Positions 1 through 18,791 of a DNA stretch of 18,996 nt are shown here, piece after piece. The stretch's first letter is position 1; every line of letters begins with the position of its first letter. This stretch comes from a virus. The position numbers and the translations under genes are program-made. The DNA is taken from the UHGV virus genome UHGV-0130646. One strand, written 5' to 3'. A model generated the notes under the pieces. It did not search any database. It saw nothing but the letters and a program-made list of their open reading frames with translations, and was not told the DNA's origin.

Positions 1-429
1 GATTTCTCTTTGATTTTTCCATCTCCAAGTGGTGATTTTGAAGTTAAAAAGGTTAATGCTGTAAATAAACTTGAGCAACTGATTAAAACCAGTATTCAAA
101 GAGGTATTGCTGAAGATGCTTTGATTAAAATAATTGAATCATTAGATGATAAATCTGATGATAAGATGTTTTCATTTGCAAGAAGGTTTTATCTTGCAGT
201 TAAACTTGTTGATAATGAAGTTATAACTGAAAATGGTTTCGATGAGCAAGATAAACATATGTATATTGAAACTCTCATTAATCTGTCTGATTTTGCAATG
301 GTTCGACTAATATGTATTATTATTGCTTATCTGTCATGGCCTAATGTTGTTTATTTGAAAAAATCACCAGAAGTGATGGGAGTTATAAAATCAACAGGAT
401 TAAATACGTATATTAATTCATTGAAATAA
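1..429 (+). CDS. Hypothetical protein, 5'-truncated at the window edge; AT-rich cargo ORF
   Basis: Frame is open from position 1 (codons GAT TTC TCT precede the TTG at 10 used by the ORF track) to the TAA at 427-429. GC content is far lower than the adjacent int gene. No motif recognised in the translation. Confidence 0.5.
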   Translation, partial: DFSLIFPSPSGDFEVKKVNAVNKLEQLIKTSIQRGIAEDALIKIIESLDDKSDDKMFSFARRFYLAVKLVDNEVITENGFDEQDKHMYIETLINLSDFAMVRLICIIIAYLSWPNVVYLKKSPEVMGVIKSTGLNTYINSLK

Positions 430-430
430 T

Positions 431-457
431 GGCTGCATTGAGCAGCCTCTTATTTTA
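431..457. terminator. Hairpin with T-rich tail between the convergent cargo ORF and int; probable bidirectional terminator
   Basis: GGCTGC (431-436), loop ATTGA, GCAGCC (442-447), then TCTTATTTTA. Sits between the stop at 427-429 and the int stop at 464-466. Confidence 0.5.
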
Positions 458-463
458 TGTGGG

Positions 464-1663
464 CTATTCGTGTGTTTTTTTAAACACGAAGTTAGCCCAC
501 CAATTCATTAAATCAATTCGTTGATAAAGGTAAGTCGAACGATTATATGCTTTACGGACTTCATTTTTATCGCTATGCGCTAATGCTGCTTCAATAACAT
601 CGGGATTAAAACCTTCCTCATTCATAGCTGTACTGGCTATAGAACGCAAACCATGTGCAACAAGCTTTCCTCCATAACCAATTCTTTTTAATGCAGCATT
701 AGCTGTCTGACTATTCATTGGTTGCTTAGGATTATTTCTACTTGGGAAAACATATTCACGATGTGCACTAATAGGCTTCATTATCTCTAAAATATCTAAT
801 GCTCGAACCGACAGAGGAACAATATGTTCTCGCTTGGCTTTCATTCGTCCTGCAGGGATCGTCCAGAGTTTATTCTCAAGATCGATCTCTGCCCATTGAG
901 TACCAGAGGCTTCAGAAGGGCGTACAAGTGTTAGAAGCTGCCATTCGATAAGGCAGCGAGTCGATACAGATAAATTAGACATGGCTAAAGAACGCATTAG
1001 ATTTGGTAGTTCTTCTGGTCGTAGTGTTGGCATGTTTTGCTTTTTTGGCTTCTCAAAGGCCATTCCAACCCCGGAAGCTGGATTGGCATCGATCAGCCCT
1101 GTATTTACGGCAAAGATCATTATCTCGTTAATGCGTTGCACTAGCCGACGTACAGTCTCTAGCGCCCCACGAGCTTTGACTGGCTCAAGCGCTTCAACCA
1201 ACGTTCGGGCTTTGATTTGCTGAACTGGGAGTTCACCAACGGCAGGGAATACATCTTTCTCCAATGAGCGCCAAATGTCTCTTGCGTAATCAGGGGTTAC
1301 GCTTTTGCTTTTAAGCTGGAACCAGTTAGCGGCGACCGTTGTAAAAATACTGTCCTGTGCGATTTGCTGCTGTTCCTCTGCAATTTCAGCTTGAATTTGC
1401 GGGTCAATTCCGTTGGCTAACAAGGAAAGGTAATCCGCTCTTAACCGTCGGGCGTCAGCAAGTGAAAGAGCTGGGAAGGTACCTAGCCCCATCATTGTCC
1501 GCTGCTTTGTTGCCGGACGTTGATAACGGAAACGCCATAACTTCTTACCGTTCGTTTTAACGAGTAGAAAAAGACCATCGCCATCATGCAACGTTAGATC
1601 CTTTTCTAACGCTTTAGCGCGCAGTACTTCTGTGTTGGTCAGGGGGCGTGTCGTTCTTGCCAA
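464..1663 (-). CDS. int: Tyrosine site-specific integrase, P4 / CP4-57 IntA family
   Basis: 399-aa ORF. The N-terminus (MARTTRPLT...DGDGLFLLV...KLWRFRY) and the C-terminal catalytic region (HGLRSIAST...EAALAHSDKNEVRKAYNRSTY) resemble P4-type integrases as I recall them. Confidence 0.9.
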   Translation of the reverse strand: MARTTRPLTNTEVLRAKALEKDLTLHDGDGLFLLVKTNGKKLWRFRYQRPATKQRTMMGLGTFPALSLADARRLRADYLSLLANGIDPQIQAEIAEEQQQIAQDSIFTTVAANWFQLKSKSVTPDYARDIWRSLEKDVFPAVGELPVQQIKARTLVEALEPVKARGALETVRRLVQRINEIMIFAVNTGLIDANPASGVGMAFEKPKKQNMPTLRPEELPNLMRSLAMSNLSVSTRCLIEWQLLTLVRPSEASGTQWAEIDLENKLWTIPAGRMKAKREHIVPLSVRALDILEIMKPISAHREYVFPSRNNPKQPMNSQTANAALKRIGYGGKLVAHGLRSIASTAMNEEGFNPDVIEAALAHSDKNEVRKAYNRSTYLYQRIDLMNWWANFVFKKTHE

Positions 1664-1774
1664 TTTGGCCGCTCCTTCATGAATTGGTATACGCGTTTAG
1701 GTATACATCCTACCGTATACCTAAACGTATACCAATAATCACTGGATTTAGCTGGATATCCTCGGACAACAGTA

Positions 1775-1805
1775 GACACAAAAAAGCCCGCAGAGCTTGT
1801 GCCAT
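1775..1805 (-). terminator. Rho-independent terminator on the minus strand, downstream of the tRNA-like core and upstream of int
   Basis: Minus strand reads GCCCGCA-loop-TGCGGGC followed by TTTTTTGTGT (plus coordinates: A-tract 1775-1780, stem arms 1781-1787 and 1799-1805). Confidence 0.55.
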
Positions 1806-1847
1806 GCGGGCTTTCAGGATTTCTCCGGACGTATCCGGAAGAGCAAG

Positions 1848-1870
1848 TGGTGGAGCTGGCGGAGTTTGAA
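1848..1870 (-). other. att core resembling the 3' end of a tRNA/tmRNA gene
   Basis: Minus strand reads TTCAAACTCCGCCAGCTCCACCA, i.e. T-loop-like, acceptor 3' half and CCA. From memory this resembles the ssrA (tmRNA) 3' terminus and does not match leuX, the P4 target. No complete tRNA gene is present. Confidence 0.5.
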
Positions 1871-2010
1871 TAAATATTGTATTGCTTTGATTTTTAATGA
1901 TTTTGTTTAATTCATTTTTTGTGCGTATACCTAATCGTATACCAATGGCTGTAAGTTAATGTGAAATGAAAGCGCATTTTTACTTGGATTGATGCTATAT
2001 CGTACAGGAA

Positions 2011-2310
2011 AAAAATTTTTTTTCGAAAGAACTGTTCACACTGTTCACCTTTCTGTTTTCTCCTTTTATTTCAGAGTGATAGGTGGTGAATAATGGGTGA
2101 AGGGTGAACATTCGATTCTTCACCTCCGGCATTCTGCCGGTGTGACTCATACCGGTGATTAATCCCCCGTACTGAAATCACTCAGGAAGAAAAAAGTTTT
2201 TTTTGATTTGATTGTTCACACTGTTCACCTTTCGTTTTTCTCTTTTAATTTCAGTATGATAACGGGTGAATATACGGTGAAGGGTGAACAGTGGATTGTT
2301 CACCTGCGGG
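2011..2310. repeat. crr-like cis replication region: two ~120-bp direct repeats (period 180 bp) carrying TGTTCACC/GGTGAACA iterons
   Basis: Copy 1 about 2011-2125 and copy 2 about 2191-2305 align nearly base for base. Each holds several TGTTCAC(C/A) or GGTGAA(CA) octamers. Matches the P4 crr architecture bound by alpha. Confidence 0.75.
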
Positions 2311-2320
2311 GGATATCGGG

Positions 2321-2347
2321 ATAAAAAAAGACCGGCAGATGCCGGTC
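2321..2347 (-). terminator. Rho-independent terminator immediately downstream of alpha (minus strand)
   Basis: GACCGGCA / TGCCGGTC inverted repeat (2330-2347) followed on the minus strand by a T7 tract (plus-strand A-run 2323-2329). Lies 17 bp past the alpha stop. Confidence 0.6.
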
Positions 2348-2363
2348 AGGTGGGTCATGAGGG

Positions 2364-4697
2364 TCAGGTTGTTGCAGGGTCGTCACATTTTGGCAGCCAG
2401 TCGCCGTAGCTTTCCTCTTTCAGCGTCAGGTTGGTCTGTATCCCCTGTTTGGTATGGCGCTTCTCGTAATTCAGTCCGTATTCCTTCAGCATCACCGGCA
2501 GCCCCAGCCCGAACATTTTCAGACTGAGTACATTCCGGTAGCCGTTTGCCTCCATGTAGGCCAGATAGGCGTGATAGAGGTATTTACGGTAATTGCGCGG
2601 GATGATACTGGCGTTCCCCATATACATGCCGCTGGTCTGCGGCAGGGTTTCCAGATAGCCGATAAAATCAAACGTCGGGTCGGCATCCCGTTTGATGTTC
2701 AGTGCCTCGTCTGAGTTCTGCTGGGACTGAAGCAGTGACCGGGCGAGCATCGGGTCGCTGAACTTCTGCATCAGGTGACGCACGATGACCGCCAGCTCGC
2801 GGGTGATTTTGTCCTTAAGCTGCGGGTCGCGCTCCTGCGGGGCTATCTGTTCCGGGAAGTGAATAATCACCCGCCGGCGTGACACGCCGCCGCTGCGGTC
2901 GGTGAAGCGCATCGGGTTATTGTTCACGGCCAGAATCACCGCCGGGATGTGCGTGGAGTACGCATCCCGGTATTTCGGGTCCACGGACACCGCATCGCCG
3001 CCGGTGATGGCCTTGAGTCCGGCACCGTCGCCGCTCCATTTTTCCTGGTCCGGCAGGCGTATCAGTGAGAAGCCAGTTAACGCGGCACGTTCACGCGGGG
3101 ATTCCAGCGTCTCGATGGTGGCCGACGTGGCGTTATCCTCCCCGGCCAGCAGGGTGGCTATTTCGGCCATGATACTTTTGCCGCTGCCGCCGGGACCGGT
3201 CACCTCCAGAAAGAGCTGCCAGTCGTAGCGGTTTGCCAGCACCATAAACAGTGCGGCCAGAATCACGTCGCGTTTTTCCGCACGGCCACCGGCGGCACGG
3301 TCAAGCCAGCGCCAGAACGCGGGGGCGTGGGTTTCCAGCGTTTCACCGTCCACCGGCGGGGTGAAATCCACATCACACAGGGTACGCATCCAGTGTGACG
3401 GACTGTGCGGGTGGAACGTGCCGTTCTGCGTGTCGAGCACGCCGTTACGAAAGCCAATCAGGCGGCGGGAGGGGGCTTCCTGCTGCGGAATAATCAGCTT
3501 CAGGGTGTCCACCACGGAGGCCACCTTCCCGGAGGAGAACGGCGCACGCAGCCGCTGAAACAGCCCGGCCACATCCCGGGCAAAGTCCTGTGGTGGCAGC
3601 ACCTTCCAGACACCATTTTCATAACGGGACAGAAGCTGGCCGTTGGCATCGACCGCGAGCGCCTCGCCGTAATGCTCATAGATACGCATGGCCTTTTCAC
3701 TGGTACTCATGGCGGAAAACTCCGCTTCGCTCATGGTGTCGAACGGGCTTTCAGCCGGTGGCCGGATGGCATCGTAAATGGCCTTACGGGTGGCTTCCCC
3801 GCCGTACTGCGTGAAGGCATCATTCCAGTCACCGAAGACCGGCGGCAGGGCAACAACACCTTCACACGCATCTGCGGCTGCGGCGGCTTTTTTCTGGCCG
3901 TCACCGCTGAGGTCACGGTCTGCGGCAAGGACAATCTGACAGGCCGGATGCTTCTGCCGGGCAAGGCTGGCCAGAGAAAGGAGGTTCACGGAAGAAAGCG
4001 CCACCATCACCGTTTCACCGGTCAGGTGATGTACGGTAAGTGCGGTCGCGTATCCCTCCGCTATCCACAGACGTTTTCCGGCCTGATTCTGTCCTTCAAG
4101 GATGTGACAGGTGCCCCTGACCTGCCCGCCTTTCAGGGTGCGCTTACGGCCGTCAGCGCTGATTAACTGAAGGTTAACAAGTTCGCCGCTGTCGTCATAC
4201 AGTGGCACCACAAGGTCACCGGCGCGCCAGCTCACGCCACCGGCTCTGTGTGTGCCGGTCAGCATCCGGCATTCCCGGCCGGGAAAGCCCTTGCGGGTCA
4301 GGTAGGCGTTACCGGTTCCGGTACGGGTTTTCGCCATCAGGGTTTGTGCCAGTGCGGCGGCGTTCTTCCGGGCAGCGTCTGTTTCAGCACCGGCGGCGGC
4401 CGTCACTGCCGGGTCAGCCGGGGGCAGGCTGCCGGTCACGGCAGCCACCTTTGTGGCCGCGTCGGACGGGGAGACACCAAACACCTTTTCAACCAGTTTC
4501 AGGCCGTCACCGGCACCACACTGATTGCAGTACCAGGTGCCGCGCCCCTCCCTGTCATCAAAACGGAAGCGGTCACTCCCGCCACAGACCGGACAGGGCT
4601 GATGACGGTTTTTCAGCACCTGAATCCCCAGCGCCGGGAGGATACGCGGCCAGTGGCCGAGCGCATGGCTGACGGTGGCGGTTACGTTCATTTTCAT
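2364..4697 (-). CDS. alpha: DNA primase-helicase (P4 alpha type)
   Basis: 777-aa ORF, the same length as P4 alpha. N-terminal zinc-binding motif CPVCGG...YCNQCG, a primase/TOPRIM-like middle region, and a C-terminal Walker A motif (GPGGSGKS). Confidence 0.92.
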   Translation of the reverse strand: MKMNVTATVSHALGHWPRILPALGIQVLKNRHQPCPVCGGSDRFRFDDREGRGTWYCNQCGAGDGLKLVEKVFGVSPSDAATKVAAVTGSLPPADPAVTAAAGAETDAARKNAAALAQTLMAKTRTGTGNAYLTRKGFPGRECRMLTGTHRAGGVSWRAGDLVVPLYDDSGELVNLQLISADGRKRTLKGGQVRGTCHILEGQNQAGKRLWIAEGYATALTVHHLTGETVMVALSSVNLLSLASLARQKHPACQIVLAADRDLSGDGQKKAAAAADACEGVVALPPVFGDWNDAFTQYGGEATRKAIYDAIRPPAESPFDTMSEAEFSAMSTSEKAMRIYEHYGEALAVDANGQLLSRYENGVWKVLPPQDFARDVAGLFQRLRAPFSSGKVASVVDTLKLIIPQQEAPSRRLIGFRNGVLDTQNGTFHPHSPSHWMRTLCDVDFTPPVDGETLETHAPAFWRWLDRAAGGRAEKRDVILAALFMVLANRYDWQLFLEVTGPGGSGKSIMAEIATLLAGEDNATSATIETLESPRERAALTGFSLIRLPDQEKWSGDGAGLKAITGGDAVSVDPKYRDAYSTHIPAVILAVNNNPMRFTDRSGGVSRRRVIIHFPEQIAPQERDPQLKDKITRELAVIVRHLMQKFSDPMLARSLLQSQQNSDEALNIKRDADPTFDFIGYLETLPQTSGMYMGNASIIPRNYRKYLYHAYLAYMEANGYRNVLSLKMFGLGLPVMLKEYGLNYEKRHTKQGIQTNLTLKEESYGDWLPKCDDPATT

Positions 4698-4711
4698 GGT
4701 GTTGTTCTCCT

Positions 4712-5032
4712 TCAGTGCAGTACCGGCGCTTTTATGTGACGGGCACAGAGTTCATCCATCACAACCAGCCCGAGAAAGGACAGCGACGGCGCGGCCTTCA
4801 GGGGGCCGGATTCCATTAAATCTTCCAGCAGGGCACAGGCTATCTGACGCCCTTTTTCCTCACCGTGCTGGCGCAGATAAAAGCCTTCCAGCTCAGCGGC
4901 GATGGCCGCCTCCAGTGATTCAAGGGTGAGATGCGGGTAGCGGTGCTGACGTTCGCACACGGTCAGCCAGGCACAGGCGACAGCGCGACGGTAAAGGGCA
5001 GCGCGTAAGACGGGCGGTAAGGGTGTTTTCAT
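4712..5032 (-). CDS. P4 orf106-like hypothetical protein
   Basis: 106-aa ORF immediately upstream of alpha in the same operon, with GGAGG 7 nt upstream of the ATG. Position and length match P4 orf106 as recalled. Confidence 0.65.
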
Positions 5033-5167
5033 TTGCTTTCCTCCCTGTGACAGATGACTGCATTCCGTGCCGGTTGCATTAACTGATAAGGCATATCTGC
5101 GTCTCCTGAAGACGTGCGTATCCCTGCGCGAATACGCACATTTAATTTTTCGGGTGTCGTTTTTTAA

Positions 5168-5623
5168 TTACAGATAATTGCGGTAACTGTTATCCGGGGT
5201 GATTTCCGGGTCAGGCTCCGTGCGGGGAATTTCCCGCCATTCCCGCGCCACCGGTGCTGCCCGGCTGACCGGAACAGGGTCCTGCGGGTAAATATCCAGA
5301 TATTTCTCACGCCATTTCTGTAATTCCGGGTCTCCGGCCATTTCTTTCAGTACCGCATGCCGGTTTACGGGGCTGCGTTTGAACAGGTCAGGACGGTCAC
5401 AGGTAAATTCCCGCAGAAAACGCCCCAGCGGGATGTCTGTGGTGCGCCCGTCAGCGAGGATACGCACAAGGATACTGAATTTACGGCGGTACGGGTTCCA
5501 GACAATGTCCGGGCAGCGGTACGGCATTTCCCACGGAATACCGTCTTCCAGAATGCCGACCACGGCCACATCGGGAAAACCGGCAGAACGGTAAATCTCA
5601 CCGGGCTGGGGAAAATCAAACAT
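5168..5623 (-). CDS. P4 orf151-like hypothetical protein
   Basis: 151-aa ORF in the left operon; its start overlaps the stop of the upstream 95-aa ORF by 8 nt. Position and length match P4 orf151. Confidence 0.65.
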   Translation of the reverse strand: MFDFPQPGEIYRSAGFPDVAVVGILEDGIPWEMPYRCPDIVWNPYRRKFSILVRILADGRTTDIPLGRFLREFTCDRPDLFKRSPVNRHAVLKEMAGDPELQKWREKYLDIYPQDPVPVSRAAPVAREWREIPRTEPDPEITPDNSYRNYL

Positions 5624-5903
5624 GCGTCCTGTCTCCCCGGTCTTTCTGCTGGGCGAGAAAATCGCGGCACAGGCCTTTGGCTTTCAGCTCATTCAGCACA
5701 AAATCAATATCTTCATTCAGGTAACTGAAAATATGCGGAATGTAGAGCTGATGCAGGCCGGAGAGTTCACGGTGAATCAAATCCCCCCCAACAAACCGGG
5801 ATACGGCGCTGGCGCGGTTGAGCTTATGGTAAGCCTCAATGCTGAGGTGTTCACGGGCGTCATGACGCGCTGAGACGGTCTGAGGGGCTTTTTTATTACG
5901 CAC
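5616..5903 (-). CDS. Small left-operon protein, possibly an epsilon-like antirepressor
   Basis: 95-aa ORF translationally coupled to orf151. Assignment to epsilon is positional only; identity is uncertain. Confidence 0.45.
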
Positions 5904-6495
5904 GGGACACCTCCATCACCGGCAGACGGGCAGCAAGGGAGAGCACATAGTCACGGACAAGGGAACGGCGGGCGCTGCGTTCATCACCGGCGACGGTGCG
6001 AAGCATACAGATACGGGGATGACGGTCTGCGCGACGGACAGCCGCAAACACAAAGACAAATTCAGGGTGTGAGGGGGTAAGGGTCGTAGCCATAAGGCAG
6101 CCTCCTTCGAGTAGCAAATAACTGCTATCGCCGGAGTTTCCACGCTCAATGGCGATAGCCCAGACGGGGGTGGAAATACCGGCCTCGAAGAATACCGGCC
6201 AGCCCGGAGGCTGCCCCGCCTGAGCTACCATTGACTCTGCGGCATAATGAGCGGACGCGGGCAGGATGCACGGAATGCCATCTGCACGACTGACCACACA
6301 CCACACCATAATCTGGCGCTCTGTGGCGTTGATTGCGACACAAAAAAAGACGCATGGCGCGTCATATGTCGCCTTCGAGTTACACGGGTTTCCACGCCCG
6401 GCTGCCGATTTTGCGGCAGCGGAAAAACTATATCCGCAAATGCCGGAAAAAGGCAAGCCAGAAAAAGGGACTTTTTGCAGAGCGGGCATCATCAT
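5896..6495 (-). CDS. orf199-like reading frame spanning the immunity region (kil-like N-terminus?); coding status uncertain
   Basis: Three in-frame ATGs (minus-strand ATGATGATG, plus 6487-6495) overlap the vis stop and give a 199-aa frame. In P4 this interval holds kil and the CI RNA immunity determinant, so the long ORF may not be fully translated. Confidence 0.3.
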
Positions 6496-6758
6496 GCGTC
6501 GTACCCCCGTTTGCGTCCGGCAATGCGCCCGGCCATCCATGCGGTGACTTCAGAGTGCAGCCAGGCCACATTTTTACCGCCAAGACTCACCTGCGGCGGA
6601 AATTCCCCCTTACGGATGAGTTCATAGATGGTCGAGCGTGACAGGCCGCACAGGTGCATCACTTCCGGCAGACGTAAAAAACGCTCCTGCGTGATGTCCG
6701 GCAGCGGCATCAGTGGCGTCACAGGGGCGGGAGACGGGGAAGAAAAAACAGCTTGCAT
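6492..6758 (-). CDS. vis: Vis / AlpA-family helix-turn-helix regulator (excisionase-like)
   Basis: 88-aa ORF with an AlpA-type HTH ([44 protein letters not shown]). GAGGT lies 5 nt upstream of the ATG. Confidence 0.8.
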
Positions 6759-6860
6759 CGGGCTACCTCGTTAATGTCCATACAGCACCGGATAAGTCCG
6801 TCCGGCTTCGGGTAGCGCTTTATTTTGTGAATATTTTCAGCAGACGCAACAGGGGGGATT

Positions 6861-6878
6861 TGTTCCGGCAGTCTTACA
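6861..6878 (-). promoter_or_regulatory. TGT-N12-ACA activator (Delta/Ogr-type) site upstream of vis; PLL-like late promoter
   Basis: TGTtccggcagtcttACA, about 100 bp upstream of the vis start codon (6758), the distance expected for a -55-centred activator site on a late promoter with a short leader. Confidence 0.5.
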
Positions 6879-6903
6879 ATGCTTGTGTATTTTTTGTTCA
6901 TCT

Positions 6904-6933
6904 CCACTTAAAGTCATTTAAAGCCACTTAAAG
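6904..6933. repeat. Three tandem 10-bp repeats (CCACTTAAAG / TCATTTAAAG / CCACTTAAAG)
   Basis: Read directly from the sequence. The 10-bp period places the copies on one face of the helix. Located between the PLL-like site and the ori1-like iterons. Confidence 0.6.
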
Positions 6934-7037
6934 CAATTCGTAATTTTTATAGTGAAATACAAATCGTTTTTTCTTATTCATTCCCGGCGAATTAATAAAA
7001 ACAAACAGTAATAAACAGCACAAAAAGTCTATGAGCG

Positions 7038-7142
7038 GGTGAACAGTGGTGAACAGACGGTGAACAGTCATTACTGCGATTGTTCACCCTTTAACTTACT
7101 GTATTACTTATCTTTTTTCTTAAGGTGAACAGAGGTGAACAG
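7038..7142. repeat. ori1-like origin iterons (GGTGAACAG x5 direct, one inverted)
   Basis: GGTGAACAG at 7038, 7048, 7058, 7124 and 7134, plus inverted TGTTCACCC at 7081, within an AT-rich stretch. Same octamer as in the crr repeats. Confidence 0.7.
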
Positions 7143-7220
7143 TAAAATATAAAAAAACAAACAGTAAGCCGGTTTTTCCTGCGACCTTTTCCTGGCTTGC
7201 CGGTCTGAGGATGAGTCTCC

Positions 7221-7276
7221 TGTGTCAGGGCTGGCACATCTGCAATGCGTCGTGTTGTTGTCCGGTGTACGTCACA
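7221..7276 (+). promoter_or_regulatory. Psid-like late promoter with two TGT-N12-ACA activator sites
   Basis: TGTgtcagggctggcACA (7221-7238) and TGTccggtgtacgtcACA (7259-7276), centres 38 bp apart, upstream of the sid start at 7311. Confidence 0.6.
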
Positions 7277-7310
7277 ATTTTCTTAACCTGAAGTGACGAG
7301 GAGCCGGAAA

Positions 7311-8045
7311 ATGTCTGACAACACCATCCCTGAATATCTGCAACCCGCACTGGCACAACTGGAAAAGGCCAGAGCCGCTCATCTTGAGAACGCCCGCCTG
7401 ATGGATGAGACCGTCACGGCCATTGAACGGGCAGAGCAGGAAAAAAATGCGCTGACGCAGGCCGACGGAAACGACGCTGACGACTGGCGCACGGCCTTTC
7501 GTGCAGCCGGTGGTGTCCTGAGCGACGAGCTGAAACAGCGCCACATTGAGCGCGTGGCACGCCGGGAGCTGGTACAGGAATATGACAATCTGGCCGTGGT
7601 GCTGAATTTTGAACGCGAACGCCTGAAAGGGGCGTGTGACAGCACGGCCACCGCCTACCGGAAGGCACATCATCACCTTCTGAGTCTGTATGCAGAGCAT
7701 GAGCTGGAACACGCCCTGAATGAAACCTGTGAGGCGCTTGTCCGGGCAATGCATCTGAGCATTCTGGTACAGGAAAATCCGCTCGCCAACACCACCGGCC
7801 ATCAGGGCTACGTCGCACCGGAAAAGGCTGTCATGCAGCAGGTGAAATCATCGCTGGAACAGAAAATTAAACAGATGCAAATCAGTCTCACCGGCGAGCC
7901 GGTTCTCCGGCTGACCGGACTGTCAGCGGCAACACTCCCGCACATGGATTATGAGGTGGCAGGCACACCGGCACAGCGCAAGGTGTGGCAGGACAAAATA
8001 GACCAGCAGGGTGCAGAGCTTAAGGCCAGAGGACTGCTGTCATGA
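7311..8045 (+). CDS. sid: Capsid size determination protein Sid (external scaffold)
   Basis: 244 aa from the ATG at 7311 (GAGGAG 6 nt upstream); the ORF track's GTG at 7293 is probably not the start. Coiled-coil-rich translation; stop overlaps the delta start. Length matches P4 Sid. Confidence 0.88.
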   Translation: MSDNTIPEYLQPALAQLEKARAAHLENARLMDETVTAIERAEQEKNALTQADGNDADDWRTAFRAAGGVLSDELKQRHIERVARRELVQEYDNLAVVLNFERERLKGACDSTATAYRKAHHHLLSLYAEHELEHALNETCEALVRAMHLSILVQENPLANTTGHQGYVAPEKAVMQQVKSSLEQKIKQMQISLTGEPVLRLTGLSAATLPHMDYEVAGTPAQRKVWQDKIDQQGAELKARGLLS

Positions 8046-8542
8046 TTTACTGCCCGTCGTGTGGACATGTTGCTCACACCCGTCGCGCACATTTCATGGA
8101 CGATGGCACCAAGATAATGATTGCACAGTGCCGGAATATTTATTGCTCTGCGACATTTGAAGCGAGTGAAAGCTTTTTCTCTGACTGTAAAGATTCAGGA
8201 ATGGAATACATTTCAGGCAAACAGAGATACCGCGATTCACTGACTTCTGCCTCCGGCAGTATGAAACGCCCGAAAAGAATGCTTGTTACCGGATATTGTT
8301 GTCGGAGATGTAAAGGCCTTGCACTGTCAAGAACATCGCGGCGTCTGTCTCAGGAAGTCACCGAACGTTTTTATGTGTGCACGGATCCGGGCTGTGGTCT
8401 GGTGTTTAAAACGCTTCAGACCATCAACCGCTTCATTGTCCGCCCGGTCACACCGGACGAACTGGCAGAACACCTGCATGAAAAACAGGAACTGCCGCCA
8501 GTACGGTTAAAAACACAATCATATTCGCTGCGTCTGGAATGA
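8042..8542 (+). CDS. delta: Late-gene transcriptional activator Delta (tandem Ogr-type zinc finger)
   Basis: 166 aa with two Ogr-like Cys4 halves (CPSCG...C..YC and CCRRC...CTDPGC). Length matches P4 Delta. Confidence 0.88.
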   Translation: MIYCPSCGHVAHTRRAHFMDDGTKIMIAQCRNIYCSATFEASESFFSDCKDSGMEYISGKQRYRDSLTSASGSMKRPKRMLVTGYCCRRCKGLALSRTSRRLSQEVTERFYVCTDPGCGLVFKTLQTINRFIVRPVTPDELAEHLHEKQELPPVRLKTQSYSLRLE

Positions 8543-8615
8543 GGGCTGCCGGTTAACACCGGCCGTCGCCGCACACCGTATTTTTATTCTTCAGCATGAT
8601 GAGAAAGAGATAACG

Positions 8616-9188
8616 ATGGAAAGCACAGCCTTACAGCAGGCCTTTGACACCTGTCAGAATAACAAAGCAGCATGGCTGCAACACAAAAATGAGCTGGCAG
8701 CGGCCGAACAGGAATACCTGCGGCTTCTGTCAGGAGAAGGCAGAAACGTCAGTCGCCTGGACGAATTACGCAATATTATCGAAGTCAGAAAATGGCAGGT
8801 GAATCAGGCCGCCAGTCGTTATATTCGTTCGCATGAAGCCGTTCAGCACATCAGCATCCGCGACCGGCTGAATGATTTTATGCAGCAGCACGGCACAGCA
8901 CTGGCGGCGGCACTGGCACCGGAGCTGATGGGCTACAGTGAGCTGACGGCCATTGCCCGAAACTGTGCCATACAGCGTGCCACAGATGCCCTGCGTGAAG
9001 CCCTTCTGTCCTGGCTTGCGAAGGGGGAAAAAATTAATTATTCCGCACAGGATAGCGACATTTTAACGACCATCGGATTCAGGCCTGACGCGGCTTCGGT
9101 GGATGACAGCCGTGAAAAATTCACCCCTGCGCAGAACATGATTTTTTCGCGTAAAAGTGCGCAACTGGCATCACATCAGTCTGTGTAA
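8616..9188 (+). CDS. psu: Polarity suppression / capsid decoration protein Psu
   Basis: 190 aa; N-terminus MESTALQQAFDTCQNNKAAWLQ matches my recollection of P4 Psu. Last gene before cos. Confidence 0.88.
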   Translation: MESTALQQAFDTCQNNKAAWLQHKNELAAAEQEYLRLLSGEGRNVSRLDELRNIIEVRKWQVNQAASRYIRSHEAVQHISIRDRLNDFMQQHGTALAAALAPELMGYSELTAIARNCAIQRATDALREALLSWLAKGEKINYSAQDSDILTTIGFRPDAASVDDSREKFTPAQNMIFSRKSAQLASHQSV

Positions 9189-9230
9189 AATTCCCCGAAA
9201 ATCCGCCCGTTTTTACTGAAAAAAGCCATG

Positions 9231-9265
9231 CATCGATAAGGTGCATGGCTTTGCATGCGTTTTCC
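9231..9265 (+). terminator. Rho-independent terminator downstream of psu
   Basis: GCCATGCA (9235-9242), 9-nt loop, TGCATGGC (9252-9259), followed by TTTGCATGCGTTTT. Confidence 0.55.
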
Positions 9266-9352
9266 TGCCTCATTTTCTGCAGACCGCGCCATTCCCGGCG
9301 CGGCCTGAGCGTGTCAGTGCAACTGCATTGAAACCGCCCCGCAAAGCGGGCG

Positions 9353-9371
9353 GGCGAGGCGGGGAAAGCAC
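9353..9371. other. cos site: 19-nt P2/P4 cohesive-end sequence
   Basis: GGCGAGGCGGGGAAAGCAC matches the P2/P4 cohesive end as I recall it. It is uninterrupted, so this is a cos junction and not a mature genome end. Confidence 0.8.
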
Positions 9372-9502
9372 TGCGCGCTGGCGGTGGTGCTGATTTTATT
9401 TTTTAGCGTCTCAGCGCGTCGTGATGGCGTTTAGATTGTGCGCCGGGGCGTTGGTGTGTCTGCGGGCTGTTTTGTGCGGTGGTGAGCGTGTGAGGGCGTG
9501 AT

Positions 9503-9524
9503 GACGGGGTGTAAAAAAGCCGCC
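9503..9524 (-). terminator. Rho-independent terminator downstream of Q (minus strand)
   Basis: GCCGCC / GGCGGC stem (9509-9524) followed on the minus strand by T6 (plus-strand A-run 9503-9508). Confidence 0.5.
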
Positions 9525-9539
9525 CGCAGGCGGCGATGT

Positions 9540-10574
9540 TCAGCCGTTGTCAGTGTCCAGTGAGTAGTTTTTAAAGCGGATGACCTCCTGACCGAGCCAG
9601 CCGTTTATTTCCCGAATCCTGTCCTGTAACGGGATAAGCTCATTGCGGACAAAGACCTTTGCCACTTTCTCAATATCGCCCAGCGACCCGACGTTCTCCG
9701 GCTTGCCGCCCATCAACTGAAAGGGGATGCGGTGCGCGTCCAGCAGGTCTGCGGCACTGGCTTTTTTGATATTAAAAAAATCGTCCTTCGTCGCCACTTC
9801 ACTGAGCGGGATAATTTTGATGCCGTCTGGCTTTCCCTGTGGTGCATAGAGAAACAGATTATTAAAGTTATTGCGTCCTTTCGACCTGGCCATGTTTTCG
9901 CGAAGTGAGTCAATGTAATCGCGATCCTGCAATGCGTCAGTGATATACATGATATATCCGGCATGTGCGCCGTTTTCGTAATACTTGCGGCGGAACAGCG
10001 TGGCCGACTCATTCAGCCAGGCGGAGTTAAGGGCGCTGAGATATTCCGGCAGGCCGTACAGCTCCTGATTAATATCAGGCTCCAGCAGGTGAAACACGGA
10101 GCCGGGCGCGAAGGCTGTCGGCTCGTTGAAGGACGGCACCCACCAGTAAACATCCTCTTCCACGCCACGACGGGTATATTTTGCCGGTGAGGTTTCCAGT
10201 CTGATGATCTTACCGGTAGTGCTGTAACGCTTTTCCAGAAACGCATTACCGAACACCAGAAAATCCAGCACAAAGCGGCTGAAATCCTGCTGGGAAAGCC
10301 ACGGGTGCGGGATAAACGTTGAGGCCAGAATATTACGTTTGACGTAAATCGGTGAGCTGTGATGCACGGCAGCACGCAGGCTTTTTGCCAGACCGGTAAA
10401 GCTGATTGGTGGCTCATACCATCTGCCGTTACTGATGCACTCGACATAATCCAGAATGTCACGGCGGTCGAGTACCGGCACCGGCTCACCAAAGGTGAAT
10501 GCCGCCATTTTCGGGGCGCTGGCGGTCATTTTTTTTGCCGCAGGTTGCGGTGTTTTCCCTTTTTTCTTGCTCAT
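9540..10574 (-). CDS. Q: Portal protein (P2 gpQ type)
   Basis: 344 aa, same length as P2 Q, with a lysine-rich N-terminus. Start overlaps the P stop in a TGATG arrangement. Confidence 0.9.
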   Translation of the reverse strand: MSKKKGKTPQPAAKKMTASAPKMAAFTFGEPVPVLDRRDILDYVECISNGRWYEPPISFTGLAKSLRAAVHHSSPIYVKRNILASTFIPHPWLSQQDFSRFVLDFLVFGNAFLEKRYSTTGKIIRLETSPAKYTRRGVEEDVYWWVPSFNEPTAFAPGSVFHLLEPDINQELYGLPEYLSALNSAWLNESATLFRRKYYENGAHAGYIMYITDALQDRDYIDSLRENMARSKGRNNFNNLFLYAPQGKPDGIKIIPLSEVATKDDFFNIKKASAADLLDAHRIPFQLMGGKPENVGSLGDIEKVAKVFVRNELIPLQDRIREINGWLGQEVIRFKNYSLDTDNG

Positions 10575-12346
10575 CAGTAAAACTCCAGAATGGTGGATGT
10601 CAGCGGGGTGCTGATACCGGCGGTGAGTGGCTCATTTAACAGGGCGTGCATGGTCGCCCAGGCGAGGTCGGCGTGGCTGGCTTCCTCGCTGCGGCTGGCC
10701 TCATAGGTGGCGCTGCGCCCGCTGCTGGTCATGGTCTTGCGGATAGCCATAAACGAGCTGGTGATGTCGGTGGCGCTGACGTCGTATTCCAGACAGCCAC
10801 GGCGGATAACGTCTTTTGCCTTGAGCACCATTGCGGTTTTCATTTCCGGCGTGTAGCGGATGTCGCGCGCGGCGGGATAGAACGAGCGCACGAGCTGGAA
10901 CACGCCGACACCGAGGCCGGTGGCATCAATACCGATGTATTCGACGTTGTATTTTTCGGTGAGTTTGCGGATGGATTCAGCCTGGGTGGCAAAGTCCATG
11001 CCTTTCCACTGGTGACGCTCAAGTATTCTGAATTTGCCACCGGCCACCACCGGCGGTGCCAGCACCACGCATCCGGCGCTGTCGCCACGGTGTGACGGGT
11101 CGTAACCAATCCATACCGGGCGGGAGCCGAACGGATTCGCGGCAAACGGCGCATAGTCTTCCCATTCTTCCAGCGTGTCGACCATGCAGCGTTGCAGCTC
11201 CTCGAACGGGAACACCGACGCCTTGTCGTCAACAAATTCACACATGAACAGGTTTTTAAAATCGTCGGCGCTGTTTTCGCGTTTAAGCTGCTCAATGTCG
11301 AACAGCGTGCAGCCGCCTTTCAGGGCGTCCTCAATGGTGACAATCTGCCGCCACTGGCCGTCCGCACAGAGAAGCCCACCGGCAAGGGCGTTATGACTGA
11401 CGTCGATTTCCACGCGTTCGGCGGCGCTGGCGCGTCCCCGGTTGAACAGTTCACCCGACCAGAACGGATAGGCGTCGTGCGCCAGCGTGGACGGGGTGGA
11501 GAAATAGGTCGAGCGCAGGTGACTCTGTGAGGCCATACCTGATGCCACCTTACGCAGTACCTGAAAATTCGGGATCCAGAAAATCTCATCGACGTACAGG
11601 TCGCCGTTATGGCTCTGCGCGGTGTTGGAGTTGGTGCCGAGAAAAATCAGTTTTGCGCCGTTATTGCCCAGGACAATCGGGTCACCGGTCAGGTCAACGT
11701 CAACCAGCCGGGCAAAGGCGATGATGTATTCGCGGAACACATACGCCTGCGTTTTACTGGCCGACAGAAAAATCTGGTTATGACCGGTTTTCAGGGCGCG
11801 CAGCAGCGCCTCGCGGGAAAAATAAAACGTCGCGCCAATCTGGCGGGATTTCAGGATATCGCGGATACGGTGCTCAAGCCCGGCGCGATACCAGTGCAAC
11901 TGATATTCGAAAGACTGCTCAAAGAAAATCTGCTCCAGCTTTTCGATAGCCTCGTCACTGAAAAAATTCTTTTTCGGTTTGCGACGCCCGCCTTTGTTGC
12001 GGTTAGCGACGTTCGGATTAAGGTCTGCCTCGTTGCCGGTCTGACTGTAGCGGTTGACCCGCGCCAGCCGTTCAATCTGGCGTCCCAGCAGGTCAATTTC
12101 CTTGAAGTCACCGCCGGTTTTCTGCGGTTTGATGATGAGCTGGGTCAGCCGCGCTTCCAGACTCATTTCGACACGGCTGATGGGGGCAACGCTGTCCCAG
12201 CCGTCGCGCTGTTTCCAGCTCTGCACCGTCGGGCGTTTCATCTGCAACATGGCGGCAATCTGCGGCACGGAAAATCCCTGCCAGTACAGCAGCGCCGCCT
12301 GACGACGCGGGTCGTGTAAAAGAGTGGTGTCTGTGGTGATGGTCAT
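10574..12346 (-). CDS. P: Terminase large (ATPase) subunit (P2 gpP type)
   Basis: 590 aa from the internal ATG at 12346 (MTITTDTTLL..., GAGGT upstream), matching P2 P; the ORF track's 600-aa start is probably too far upstream. Confidence 0.9.
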   Translation of the reverse strand: MTITTDTTLLHDPRRQAALLYWQGFSVPQIAAMLQMKRPTVQSWKQRDGWDSVAPISRVEMSLEARLTQLIIKPQKTGGDFKEIDLLGRQIERLARVNRYSQTGNEADLNPNVANRNKGGRRKPKKNFFSDEAIEKLEQIFFEQSFEYQLHWYRAGLEHRIRDILKSRQIGATFYFSREALLRALKTGHNQIFLSASKTQAYVFREYIIAFARLVDVDLTGDPIVLGNNGAKLIFLGTNSNTAQSHNGDLYVDEIFWIPNFQVLRKVASGMASQSHLRSTYFSTPSTLAHDAYPFWSGELFNRGRASAAERVEIDVSHNALAGGLLCADGQWRQIVTIEDALKGGCTLFDIEQLKRENSADDFKNLFMCEFVDDKASVFPFEELQRCMVDTLEEWEDYAPFAANPFGSRPVWIGYDPSHRGDSAGCVVLAPPVVAGGKFRILERHQWKGMDFATQAESIRKLTEKYNVEYIGIDATGLGVGVFQLVRSFYPAARDIRYTPEMKTAMVLKAKDVIRRGCLEYDVSATDITSSFMAIRKTMTSSGRSATYEASRSEEASHADLAWATMHALLNEPLTAGISTPLTSTILEFY

Positions 12347-12519
12347 GAATACCTCGCCGTGATGAATACACGGCAAGGCTACTGAGTCGCGCCCCGCGAT
12401 TCGCTAAGGTGCTGTTGTGTCAGTGATAAGCCATCCGGGACTGATGGCGGAGGATGCGCATCGTCGGGAAACTGATGCCGACATGTGACTCCTCTAATCA
12501 CTATTCAGGACTCCTGACA
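12347..12519. promoter_or_regulatory. Divergent late promoter region (PP / PO type)
   Basis: 173-bp gap between the divergent P and O starts, as in P2. I did not find a perfect TGT-N12-ACA here, so the call is positional only. Confidence 0.45.
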
Positions 12520-13374
12520 ATGGCAAAAAAAGTCTCAAAATTCTTTCGTATCGGCGTTGAGGGTGACACCTGTGACGGGCGTGTCATCAGTGCGCAGGAT
12601 ATTCAGGAAATGGCCGAAACCTTTGACCCGCGAGTCTATGGTTGCCGCATTAACCTGGAACATCTGCGCGGCATCCTGCCTGACGGTATTTTTAAGCGTT
12701 ATGGCGATGTGGTCGAACTGAAGGCCGAAAAGATTGACGATGATTCGGCGCTGAAAGGCAAATGGGCGCTGTTTGCGAAAATCACCCCGACCGATGACCT
12801 TATCGCGATGAACAAGGCCGCGCAGAAGGTCTATACCTCAATGGAAATTCAGCCGAACTTTGCCAATACCGGCAAATGTTATCTGGTGGGTCTGGCCGTC
12901 ACCGATGACCCGGCAAGCCTCGGCACGGAATACCTGGAATTCTGCCGCACGGCAAAACACAACCCCCTGAACCGCTTCAAATTAAGCCCTGAAAACCTGA
13001 TTTCAGTGGCAACGCCCGTTGAGCTGGAATTTGAAGACCTGCCTGAAACCGTGTTCACCGCCCTGACCGAAAAGGTGAAATCCATTTTTGGCCGCAAACA
13101 GGCCAGCGATGACGCCCGTCTGAATGACGTGCATGAAGCGGTGACCGCTGTTGCTGAACATGTGCAGGAAAAACTGAGCGCCACTGAGCAGCGCCTCGCT
13201 GAGATGGAAACCGCCTTTTCCGCACTTAAGCAGGATGTGACTGACAGGGCGGATGAAACCAGCCAGGCATTCACCCGCCTGAAAAACAGTCTCGACCACA
13301 CCGAAAGTCTGACCCAGCAGCGCCGCAGCAAGGCCACCGGTGGTGGCGGTGACGCCCTGATGACGAACTGCTGA
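12520..13374 (+). CDS. O: Capsid scaffolding protein (P2 gpO type)
   Basis: 284 aa from the ATG at 12520 (MAKKVSKFFRIGVEGDT...), matching P2 O; the ORF track's upstream start at 12454 is probably wrong. Confidence 0.88.
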   Translation: MAKKVSKFFRIGVEGDTCDGRVISAQDIQEMAETFDPRVYGCRINLEHLRGILPDGIFKRYGDVVELKAEKIDDDSALKGKWALFAKITPTDDLIAMNKAAQKVYTSMEIQPNFANTGKCYLVGLAVTDDPASLGTEYLEFCRTAKHNPLNRFKLSPENLISVATPVELEFEDLPETVFTALTEKVKSIFGRKQASDDARLNDVHEAVTAVAEHVQEKLSATEQRLAEMETAFSALKQDVTDRADETSQAFTRLKNSLDHTESLTQQRRSKATGGGGDALMTNC

Positions 13375-13432
13375 CCGGCGTCAGTCAGTCCGGGAAAACC
13401 TTCACGATTAACCCTTAATTTCAGGAAAAACT

Positions 13433-14506
13433 ATGCGCCAGGAAACCCGCTTTAAATTTAATGCCTACCTGTCCCGTGTTGCCGAACTGAACGGCATCGA
13501 CGCCGGTGATGTGTCGAAAAAATTCACCGTTGAACCGTCGGTCACCCAGACCCTGATGAACACCATGCAGGAGTCCTCTGATTTTCTGACCCGCATCAAC
13601 ATTGTGCCGGTCAGCGAAATGAAAGGGGAAAAAATTGGTATTGGTGTCACCGGCTCCATCGCCAGCACCACAGACACCGCCGGTGGCACCGAGCGTCAGC
13701 CGAAGGACTTCTCGAAGCTGGCGTCAAACAAGTACGAATGCGACCAGATTAACTTCGATTTTTATATCCGCTACAAAACGCTGGACCTGTGGGCGCGTTA
13801 TCAGGATTTCCAGCTCCGTATCCGTAACGCCATTATCAAACGCCAGTCCCTTGATTTCATCATGGCCGGTTTTAACGGCGTGAAGCGTGCCGAAACCTCT
13901 GACCGCAGCAGCAATCCGATGCTGCAGGATGTGGCGGTCGGCTGGCTGCAGAAATACCGCAATGAAGCCCCGGCGCGCGTGATGAGCAAGGTCACTGACG
14001 AGGAAGGCCGCACCACCTCTGAGGTTATCCGCGTGGGTAAGGGCGGTGATTATGCCAGCCTTGATGCACTGGTGATGGATGCGACCAACAACCTGATTGA
14101 GCCGTGGTATCAGGAAGACCCTGACCTTGTGGTGATTGTGGGACGTCAGCTACTGGCGGACAAGTATTTTCCCATCGTCAACAAGGAGCAGGACAACAGC
14201 GAAATGCTGGCCGCTGACGTCATCATCAGCCAGAAACGCATCGGTAACCTGCCGGCGGTACGCGTCCCGTACTTCCCGGCGGATGCGATGCTCATCACGA
14301 AGCTGGAAAACCTGTCCATCTACTACATGGATGACAGCCATCGCCGCGTGATTGTGGAAAACCCGAAACTCGACCGCGTGGAGAACTACGAGTCAATGAA
14401 CATTGATTACGTGGTGGAGGACTACGCCGCCGGTTGTCTGGTGGAAAAAATTAAGGTCGGTGATTTCTCCACACCGGCTAAAGCGACCGCAGAGCCGGGA
14501 GCGTAA
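13433..14506 (+). CDS. N: Major capsid protein (P2 gpN type)
   Basis: 357 aa, same length and position as P2 N. Confidence 0.9.
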   Translation: MRQETRFKFNAYLSRVAELNGIDAGDVSKKFTVEPSVTQTLMNTMQESSDFLTRINIVPVSEMKGEKIGIGVTGSIASTTDTAGGTERQPKDFSKLASNKYECDQINFDFYIRYKTLDLWARYQDFQLRIRNAIIKRQSLDFIMAGFNGVKRAETSDRSSNPMLQDVAVGWLQKYRNEAPARVMSKVTDEEGRTTSEVIRVGKGGDYASLDALVMDATNNLIEPWYQEDPDLVVIVGRQLLADKYFPIVNKEQDNSEMLAADVIISQKRIGNLPAVRVPYFPADAMLITKLENLSIYYMDDSHRRVIVENPKLDRVENYESMNIDYVVEDYAAGCLVEKIKVGDFSTPAKATAEPGA

Positions 14507-14509
14507 CCG

Positions 14510-15253
14510 ATGACGAGTCCCGCACAGCGCCACATGATGCGGGTCTCGGCAGCGATGACCGCGCAGCGGGACGCCGCCCCGCTGCGACATGCAACTGTCT
14601 ATGAGCAGATGCTGGTCAAGCTGGCCGCAGACCAGCGCACACTGAAAGCGATTTATTCAAAAGAGCTGAAGGCCGCGAAAAAACGCGAACTGCTGCCGTT
14701 CTGGTTGCCGTGGGTGAACGGCGTGCTGGAGCAGGGCAAAGGTGCACAGGATGACATTCTGATGACGGTCATGCTGTGGCGTCTGGATACCGGCGATATT
14801 GCCGGTGCGCTGGAGATTGCCCGTTATGCCCTGAAGTACGGTCTGACCATGCCGGGTAAACACCACCGCACCCCGCCGTACATGTTCACCGAGGAGGTGG
14901 CGCTTGCGGCCATGCGCGCCCACGCGGCCGGTGAGTCTGTGGATACCCGCCTGCTGACGGAGACCCTTGAACTGACTGCCGCTGCTGACATGCCTGATGA
15001 AGTGCGCGCAAAGCTGCACAAAATCACCGGTCTGTTTCTGCGTGACGCTGGTGATGCCGCAGGGGCGCTGGCGCATCTGCAACGTGCGACACAGCTCGAC
15101 TGTCAGGCAGGCGTCAAAAAAGAGATTGAACGACTGGAGCGGGAGCTGAAACCGAAGCCGGAGCCGCAGCCAAAAGCGGCCACCCGTACCCCGCGTAAGA
15201 CCCGGAGCGTGACACCGGCAAAACGTGGACGCCCGAAAAAGAAAGCCAGTTAA
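14510..15253 (+). CDS. M: Terminase small (endonuclease) subunit (P2 gpM type)
   Basis: 247 aa with a basic C-terminal tail (KRGRPKKKAS); follows N after a 3-bp gap, as in P2. Confidence 0.88.
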   Translation: MTSPAQRHMMRVSAAMTAQRDAAPLRHATVYEQMLVKLAADQRTLKAIYSKELKAAKKRELLPFWLPWVNGVLEQGKGAQDDILMTVMLWRLDTGDIAGALEIARYALKYGLTMPGKHHRTPPYMFTEEVALAAMRAHAAGESVDTRLLTETLELTAAADMPDEVRAKLHKITGLFLRDAGDAAGALAHLQRATQLDCQAGVKKEIERLERELKPKPEPQPKAATRTPRKTRSVTPAKRGRPKKKAS

Positions 15254-15352
15254 CAACCGAATGCGCCCCGCGCCAGGGCGGCACGCCGGTCAGTGAGGGT
15301 GAATCACCTGACACTGCACCGGCGTCCACCGCCCGACTTTTCAGAGGTAGTC

Positions 15353-15862: not shown

Positions 15863-16065
15863 TGAAGACCTTTGCGCTACAGGGCGACACGCTCGACGCC
15901 ATTTGTGTCCGGTATTACGGGCGCACTGAGGGCGTGGTTGAGGCCGTGCTCGCCGCAAATCCGGGACTGGCTGAACTGGGTGCTGTGCTGCCACACGGCA
16001 CCGCCGTCGAACTGCCCGACGTTCAGACCGCGCCCGTGGCTGAAACTGTCAATCTGTGGGAGTAA
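15862..16065 (+). CDS. X: Tail protein X (P2 gpX type, LysM-like)
   Basis: 67 aa (MKTFALQGDTLDAICVRYYGRTEGVVEAVLAANPGLAELG...). Below the ORF-track threshold when counted from the correct start. Confidence 0.8.
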   Translation: MKTFALQGDTLDAICVRYYGRTEGVVEAVLAANPGLAELGAVLPHGTAVELPDVQTAPVAETVNLWE

Positions 16066-16068
16066 CGC

Positions 16069-16847: not shown

Positions 16848-16861
16848 ACGGAGTAAACACC

Positions 16862-18720: not shown

Positions 18721-18754
18721 TTTTATCCAGGCAGAGGCTGATGCGCAATTAAAC

Positions 18755-18783
18755 ATTGAGCGGCCATGCTGGTCGCTCAATGT
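18755..18783. terminator. 9-bp perfect hairpin between S and a convergent minus-strand ORF; probable bidirectional terminator
   Basis: CATTGAGCG (18755-18763), 11-nt loop, CGCTCAATG (18775-18783), flanked by T-rich sequence on both strands. Confidence 0.5.
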
Positions 18784-18791
18784 TTAGAGGC

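Follow-up and report, generated by a model that had tools for sequence, protein, structure and literature searches.

The int-attP interval of a P4-like satellite: evidence for an ssrA-specific cassette of the CP4-57 type

The integrase gene and the interval beside it

The window, by which we mean the whole stretch of DNA that was analysed (18,996 nucleotides of the UHGV virus genome UHGV-0130646), carries a tyrosine integrase gene, int, and next to its start codon an interval that ends where the homology to the satellite P4 begins (Table 1). The int gene starts with TTG and has a GGAG Shine-Dalgarno sequence 8 nt upstream. In its product we find the Pfam domains Arm-DNA-bind_3 (residues 8-91, E = 5e-23), Phage_int_M and Phage_integrase (E = 6e-33), as well as an HGLR motif at residues 337-340. 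A preliminary description of this DNA, made from its letters alone, had called the integrase IntA-like. This is correct: the protein is 61% identical to the K-12 IntA of CP4-57, ungapped over 393 aa, and 35% identical to P4 Int. Furthermore, an identical coding sequence is present in RefSeq (WP_000124721.1), and the public assembly index lists the exact protein in 1117 blocks.

To the right of the interval, positions 2010-9352 are 98.2% identical to positions 4291-11624 of P4 (megablast against phage records). This stretch runs from crr over alpha and the immunity region to sid, delta, psu and the right cos end. Independently of megablast, Rfam places the P4 immunity RNAs C4, isrK and c4-a1b1 at 6148-6433. 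In summary, the core set of a P4-like satellite is complete, that is, alpha, vis/alpA, sid, delta, psu, the CI/C4 RNA, crr and cos are all present. For positions 1-2009 we were not able to find a match among the phage collection records. The P4 genes gop, beta and cII are replaced in this satellite by two uncharacterised low-GC genes, and no Pfam or PADLOC family above threshold was found for the cargo genes beside int.

Table 1. Features of the int-attP region and of other parts of the window, with the sequences of the junctions
Feature	Position	Strand	Remarks
int, tyrosine integrase	464..1663	-	399 aa; IntA/CP4-57-like
Whole non-P4 attP interval	1664..2009	.	int start codon to first base of P4 crr homology
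P-arm	1684..1735	.	four arm-type motifs, two inverted and two direct; near-palindrome of about 52 bp
Rho-independent terminator	1780..1815	-	11-pair stem capped by a 3-pair stem-loop, then U6
Small hairpin between core and terminator	1822..1842	-	UCUUCCGGAUACGUCCGGAGA; MFE and centroid folds
Common core O	1848..1862	-	15 bp; plus strand TGGTGGAGCTGGCGG, minus strand CCGCCAGCTCCACCA
Imperfect T-loop-like core extension	1863..1870	-	attP TTCAAACT, ssrA TTCAACTC; junction alignments
P'-arm	1924..1945	+	two direct arm-type motifs, CGTATACCTAATCGTATACCAA
crr (P4 type)	2010..2309	+	two 120-bp repeats with TGTTCACC iterons
vis (AlpA family)	6492..6758	-	88 aa; Pfam Phage_AlpA, E = 7e-21; block 98% identical to P4
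cos cohesive-end sequence	9354..9372	+	GGCGAGGCGGGGAAAGCAC; satellite right end meets left end of P2-like genome
attP junction, plus strand			CCGGAAGAGCAAG-TGGTGGAGCTGGCGG-AGTTTGAATAAA
ssrA-side lysogen junction, plus strand			CCGGAAGAGCAAG-TGGTGGAGCTGGCGG-GAGTTGAACCCGCG (ssrA)
Far junction of AF40, plus strand			TTCAATCATGAT-TGGTGGAGCTGGCGG-AGTTTGAATAAA

The plus strand of the core is the reverse complement of the final 15 nt of E. coli ssrA, the CCA end included, and this 3'-terminal 15-mer of ssrA has its single occurrence in the window here, without a mismatch. In terms of the tmRNA, the core includes the final 4 nt of the T-stem and continues over the 3' acceptor strand and the discriminator to CCA. 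It had been proposed that the minus strand reads like the 3' end of an RNA gene ending in CCA, and we see this at 15 of 15 positions. The proposed core (1848-1870) was too long, since the eight bases 1863-1870 (AGTTTGAA) merely resemble their ssrA counterpart (GAGTTGAA, T-loop region). Because the junction sequences diverge past the core, the block of exact identity is 15 bp and not 23 bp.

Arm-type repeats were expected on both sides of the core, and both sides do carry them. The motif CGTATACCWA, with at most one mismatch, occurs at 1684-1693(-), 1698-1707(-), 1714-1723(+), 1726-1735(+), 1924-1933(+) and 1936-1945(+). These six copies within the attP interval are all that the 18,996 bases contain; 0.82 copies would be expected by chance, and six or more were found in none of 200 shuffles. 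A repeat search has additionally shown a 23-nt direct repeat with 96% identity (1714-1736 and 1924-1946) and two perfect inverted repeats (1683-1693/1726-1736 and 1694-1706/1715-1727). The P'-arm is preceded by an AT-rich spacer (1871-1923). The P-arm occupies the stretch 21-72 bp upstream of the int start, which must also contain the int promoter. A promoter scan gave no sigma-70 promoter for int above threshold; the best candidate, read by eye, is a weak, sub-threshold TTGGTA-17 nt-TAGGAT at 1735-1707 on the minus strand, with 8 of 12 positions matching.

On the strand on which the core reads as an RNA 3' end, a terminator follows downstream, as had been described, and it starts about 33 nt after the CCA (33-68 nt) instead of extending over 45-70. 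Its fold has a z value of -3.6, none of 200 shuffles folds as well, and it is conserved with paired changes in AF40, D53-1 and the K-12 CP4-57. The small hairpin between core and terminator is invariant in four lysogens, and a different hairpin is found at the same place in CP4-57. This hairpin may act as a 3'-trailer element or as a site for protein binding. In the native flank of ssrA (L002), the closest hairpin that resembles a terminator and has a T run is found about 130-150 nt downstream.

Integrated copies and the empty site

Next, we compared positions 400-1870 of the window with complete E. coli chromosomes. The identity reaches 99.9%, and the best matches end inside the annotated ssrA gene. 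Five E. coli strains, E3, GMF065, AF40, D53-1 and Z1323HEC0423, have the genes arranged as smpB, ssrA, int, cargo, psu, delta, sid and so forth, and vis and alpha follow in the four of them that were read to the far end (all but E3). In these five strains and in S. Typhi Ty2, where the exact Int is also found beside ssrA, the ssrA body is fused to the int side of the site, which extends to 1862. In the four strains read to the far end a distance of about 10.6 kb separates this junction from the crr-side sequence (from 1863 on). A second copy of the core precedes that sequence, the P'-arm is kept beside it, and the DNA flanking this copy belongs to the host or to another island. For example, the crr-side half of GMF065 lies 10.6 kb from the ssrA junction and adjoins ypjA, the D53-1 satellite adjoins another prophage, and that of Z1323HEC0423 adjoins a CP4-57-like remnant. 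Two assemblies (L012 and L013) have a tandem array, in which the satellite lies behind a 186/P2-like prophage that carries 45 nt of ssrA 3'-end sequence as a copy of its own. The other half-site (window 1848-2060) is present in 309 genomes at a coverage of at least 80%.

The two parts of the satellite in the window, 1-1870 and 1848-9378, are both 99.9% identical to one 10.65-kb prophage of GMF065. The match is circularly permuted, and the parts overlap at the core. When the junction halves of GMF065 were joined in silico, they reproduced window 1664-2009 at 346 of 346 bases. The earlier reading of the site as attP, rather than attL or attR, agrees with this and with the junctions of the lysogens (Table 1). 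Since both halves are joined in the window, the site is in the excised configuration, be it circular, linear in a virion or concatemeric. In GMF065 and Z1323HEC0423, the core copy at the far junction has a one-base deletion (TGGTGG-GCTGGCGG on the plus strand), which suggests that the strand exchange occurs 3' of the deleted base.

In the lysogens the annotated tmRNA of 363 nt is retained and ends in the core, and the terminator of the element and int then follow on the same strand. This is the arrangement that had been predicted, namely that integration rebuilds the 3' end of the RNA gene and its terminator with int downstream in the same orientation; the predicted targeting of ssrA likewise agrees with the position of the lysogens and the origin of the core. 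A search of host chromosomes for the empty site had also been proposed. When an empty attB was assembled synthetically from the far flank, the core and ssrA, 2644 of 5426 complete E. coli genomes turned out to carry it intact; in strain N3, for instance, ypjA lies 160 nt from ssrA with nothing between. On the other hand, joined int-attP-crr was found in none of the 5426 genomes (at least 80% coverage of window 400-2400), and an exact 42-mer across the core had no match in IMG/VR, the GTDB species genomes or the JGI metagenome contigs. As the joined attP is missing from all collections searched, the excised form is documented by this window only.

We therefore have here a recombinase, a core identical to that of attB, arm sites on two sides and reciprocal attL and attR, as in attP sites of the lambda/P4 type with a heterobivalent Int. 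Integration at the ssrA 3' end in CCGCCAGCTCCACCA and an integrase orthologous to IntA are those of an ssrA module of the IntA/CP4-57 type. Very probably, 1664-2009 represents the attP of a P4-like satellite whose leuX-specific P4 cassette has been replaced by an ssrA-specific one of the IntA (CP4-57) type.

The window as a whole and alternative readings

In its right half (9353-18996) the window matches bases 1-9645 of P2-like (Peduovirus) genomes at 97.5% identity, with Q, P, O, N, M, L and onward. The switch from the satellite to the P2-like sequence lies exactly at the 19-nt cohesive end, at a stretch common to both genomes (P2 homology from 9311, P4 homology to 9352). The lysogens have 1265 bp of cargo after cos; this cargo is absent from the window, where P2-like DNA comes next. 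The junction psu-cos-Q has no match in complete E. coli genomes, IMG/VR or the GTDB species genomes. An unintegrated topology had been suggested; it holds for the att site, but seen in full the window consists of a satellite whose right cos end is fused to the left end of a P2-like genome. This fusion may be a cos-annealed heteroconcatemer, a cointegrate or a chimeric assembly.

We consider it possible, though not likely, that the sequence of the attP is correct while its unintegrated state and the fusion of satellite and P2-like genome are artefactual. Possible sources are a chimeric assembly through the shared cos region, annealing or ligation of cos ends in the DNA preparation, or a deliberate concatenation. 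The exact position of the switch, inside a stretch common to both genomes, and the absence of the psu-cos-Q junction from every collection searched both speak for this. However, unless the join was made by computation, reads that connect the halves of attP must still stem from satellite DNA that had been excised or was replicating, and the join is perfect to the base. Moreover, such an artefact would bear on the provenance of the window and not on the identity of 1664-2009.

Rather improbable, in our view, is that the window represents a physical molecule, an excised satellite joined via cos to a P2-like helper. A heteroconcatemer would be one form of such a molecule; another would be a cointegrate that arose when the two genomes recombined within the cos region of about 100 bp that they have in common. 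The intact attP, the position of the switch at the cohesive end and the lack of this junction in the collections searched would be compatible with it. If this were true, the satellite would sit inside the helper genome between two cos sites with its own attP unused, so that it could be carried and packaged without the action of Int.

A tandem prophage would have a P'-core-P junction identical in sequence to attP, so that the site could be the internal junction of two satellite copies at ssrA and the element still chromosomal. Tandem arrays at ssrA are indeed real (L012, L013, D53-1 and Z1323HEC0423). We nevertheless judge this reading very unlikely: a tandem array predicts cargo and int after psu-cos, where the window has base 1 of the P2-like genome, and among the complete E. 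coli genomes the contiguous arrangement was not seen once.

Two further readings are refuted, and we give them practically no weight. That the site is attL or attR of an integrated element with a real ssrA gene would fit a core that equals the ssrA 3' end, but the gene scan that had been named as a potential refutation found no such gene (ARAGORN detects no tRNA or tmRNA gene in the window, and Rfam no tmRNA at gathering level or E <= 10); a full-length tmRNA with tRNA-like domain and tag reading frame is not there. The identity to ssrA ends after 15 nt, what follows past 1862 is the P' arm of the satellite with crr, found about 10.6 kb from ssrA in the lysogens, and the junction sequences and the permuted match to GMF065 also contradict it. 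A leuX-specific attP of the P4 type would agree with the 98% identity of 2010-9352 to P4 and with the layout of the site, but all lysogens are at ssrA, the identity of Int to P4 Int is only 35%, the P4 core TGGTGCCGAAGGCCGGACTC and the ATGCCCCCAAT-type arm repeats are absent from the window, and 1664-2009 has no significant similarity to P4 3927-4290 (8-10-mers at chance level only). The P4 core is unrelated to that of the window except for the TGGTG end, in line with the earlier suggestion of a target other than leuX.

Exchange of the cassette and proposed recombination

While the sequences differ, the attP of P4 follows the same plan as the ssrA-specific attP: int, arm repeats that overlap the int start and lie just upstream of it, a core (20 bp in P4), two arm repeats and crr. 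From the int start to the core there are 152 bp in P4 and 185 bp in the window, and from the core to the distal arm repeats 54 bp in both (counted from 1870 in the window). Both cores are 3' ends of RNA genes, leuX (tRNA-Leu) in P4 and ssrA here, and both enzymes are tyrosine integrases of the P4-type family with an arm-binding domain. The homology to P4 starts at window position 2010, which is P4 position 4291 and the first base of crr; crr is thus outside attP and forms the right edge of the exchanged cassette. Because the breakpoint coincides with the first base of crr and there is no similarity on the cassette side, the whole int-attP cassette has been exchanged. This shows that P4-like satellites swap the cassette as a unit, with this right breakpoint, and keep the P4-type Vis.

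The closest comparison for the cassette is CP4-57 of K-12 (with IntA = SlpA, and AlpA). It has the same target, ssrA, with the same 15-bp CCGCCAGCTCCACCA at the junction, and the K-12 annotation starts CP4-57 at this very 15-mer. Its spacer between ssrA and intA can be aligned with window 1664-1862, the terminator is kept, and repeats are found at corresponding positions. The arm sites, on the other hand, do not share one specificity: at the aligned positions they are GTATACC in the window and of the GGCCCA type in CP4-57. The arm-binding domain is also the most diverged part of Int with respect to IntA (57% identity, compared with 64-65% in the other two domains). From the sequences, this is the pattern expected if arm motifs and arm-binding domain co-evolve, and the pairing of a homologous spacer with another arm motif and a diverged arm-binding domain serves as a natural example of such co-variation. 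Both elements have a protein of the AlpA family. Behind the cassette, however, lies a complete P4-like satellite (alpha, CI/C4 RNA, vis, sid, delta, psu and cos) and not the gene set of CP4-57.

The gene ssrA is a classic integration hotspot, and a P4-like satellite that targets it will not surprise specialists. The retronphage phiR73 is a P4-like satellite that integrates at selC with its own int-att cassette. It is a precedent for a P4-like satellite with a different cassette and a small-RNA target, although the gene, selC, and the integrase differ from those described here.

In Hochhauser et al. 2023 (PMC10121019), the E. coli tmRNA locus is hotspot #9, with P4-like satellites among the integrated elements, and is targeted by multiple integrase subfamilies. 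A survey of 2026 delimited 2168 P4-like satellites by pairs of att sites (PMC13586616), and the satellite of the window is 99.9% identical to prophages of the surveyed class. The satellites of both surveys are integrated copies; the joined attP, its arm-site motif and the relation to CP4-57 were not found in the available text. As P4-like satellites at the tmRNA locus are thus already in the literature, the novelty is low, and the finding is correct but ordinary, since the same element is found at 99.9% in sequenced E. coli and the integrase in S. Typhi Ty2. Its value lies mainly in a clean annotation of the satellite boundaries (the size being fixed at 10.65 kb), the ssrA target and the exact 15-bp exchange block.

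How would integration proceed? By analogy with P4 and lambda, Int monomers would bind the CGTATACCWA arm sites with their N-terminal domain and connect them with core-type sites that surround the 15-bp block, probably with the help of host bending proteins. Int would catalyse the exchange of strands, which, if the analogy holds, must lie inside the 15-bp core. Because the core supplies the last 15 nt, CCA included, the mature tmRNA is unchanged on integration. As the lysogens show, the 3' trailer and the native terminator are swapped for the hairpin and terminator of the element (1842-1780), giving the order ssrA, terminator, P-arm, int, in which the terminator would end the ssrA transcript and insulate int. 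P4 Int has been reported to repress its own gene (PMC7286903). Since the P-arm sites overlie the expected int promoter, Int of the window satellite probably does the same.

Excision would probably be mediated by the AlpA-family Vis of the satellite. In P4, Vis has roles in excision and in the repression of Pint (PMC7286903); the vis product of the window is probably a recombination directionality factor, and we infer by analogy that it acts on this attP. This raises the question of how one AlpA-family directionality factor serves integrases with unrelated arm sites. Several points weaken the inferred steps: besides the lack of an int promoter in the scan, the IHF consensus WATCAANNNNTTR has no match within attP, and no convincing Vis box emerged, as the attP of the window, the P4 attP and the region upstream of vis share no 9-mer and three patternless 8-mers. 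As a lead only, we note that CCGGATAMGTCCG occurs at 1828-1840 and again at 6787-6799, with 12 of 13 positions matching and an estimated chance probability of about 0.2.

Satellite junctions at cos and at ssrA

Next to the satellite's psu gene, the right end of the satellite is joined to base 1 of a P2-like genome, exactly at the cohesive-end sequence (window 9311-9400; cos 9354-9372). No match to this satellite-cos-P2-like junction exists in 5426 complete E. coli genomes, in IMG/VR or in the GTDB species genomes. In the lysogens, cos is followed by 1265 bp of cargo, and these 1265 bp are missing from the window.

Tandem arrays are seen at ssrA (1-3820 of the assemblies L012 and L013, and also L004 and L018, the latter from E. 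coli Z1323HEC0423). In L012 and L013, a 186/P2-like prophage carries its own 45-nt copy of the ssrA 3' end and the satellite lies directly behind it; thus, a helper-type phage and the satellite can share one attachment locus. In D53-1 the satellite adjoins another prophage, and in Z1323HEC0423 a CP4-57-like remnant that is disrupted by IS100.

The far-end copy of the core has a 1-nt deletion, TGGTGG-GCTGGCGG, in two lysogens, namely GMF065 (L002 3241-3254) and Z1323HEC0423 (L018, about 5054-5067); in AF40 and D53-1 all 15 bases of the core are preserved. The outer flanks of the two deletion-bearing lysogens differ, one being the native ypjA flank and the other the CP4-57-like remnant. Should this deletion be carried along by attP, the strands would be exchanged on the CCA side of the deleted base.

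Cargo between cos and int

The cargo consists of two genes (273 and 248 aa) of low GC content (29.5%) and sits between cos and int, that is, in the position of the known P4 defence hotspot. Neither gene had a family above threshold in Pfam or PADLOC. The same cargo adjoins the identical integrase in S. Typhi Ty2, in a prophage that we take to be ST2-27. The low-GC cargo of ST2-27 is reported to be transcriptionally active (PMC2704369).

Features of the satellite, its cargo and the fusion
Feature	Position	Strand	Remark
Cargo ORF in window	10-429	+	cargo part within window 1-429
Full cargo genes	L002 (GMF065) 10900-12464		
C4/CI antisense RNA	within 6148-6433	minus	76.7 bits
isrK	within 6148-6433	minus	74.2 bits
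a1b1 target	within 6148-6433	minus	51.1 bits
psu	8616-9188		satellite right end
Q	9540-10574	minus	P2-like side; P, O, N and onward come next

RNA matches and minor features of the att region

The P4 immunity RNAs are intact (see table). Rfam gave a sub-threshold match to the Salmonella sRNA IsrM (RF02763) at window 1780-1968 (-); it scored 29 bits, where the gathering score is 376, and its E-value is about 1e-6. In its 3' third, the IsrM model aligns to a degenerate 3' end of ssrA, after which comes the terminator also present at 1780-1815. The isrM gene therefore appears to be the decayed remnant of an att junction from an IntA-type island.

Within attP, CGGACGTATCCGG occurs at 1828-1840, and a near-copy (12/13) is found on the opposite strand at 6787-6799, just upstream of vis. 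It is possibly a Vis-binding motif; by a rough estimate, however, the probability that such a match arises by chance is about 0.2.

A GTG ORF of 73 aa at 1648-1869 (+) covers the P-arm, terminator and core and is almost certainly spurious; a similar ORF, predicted by GeneMark only, lies across P4's attP in the P4 RefSeq record.
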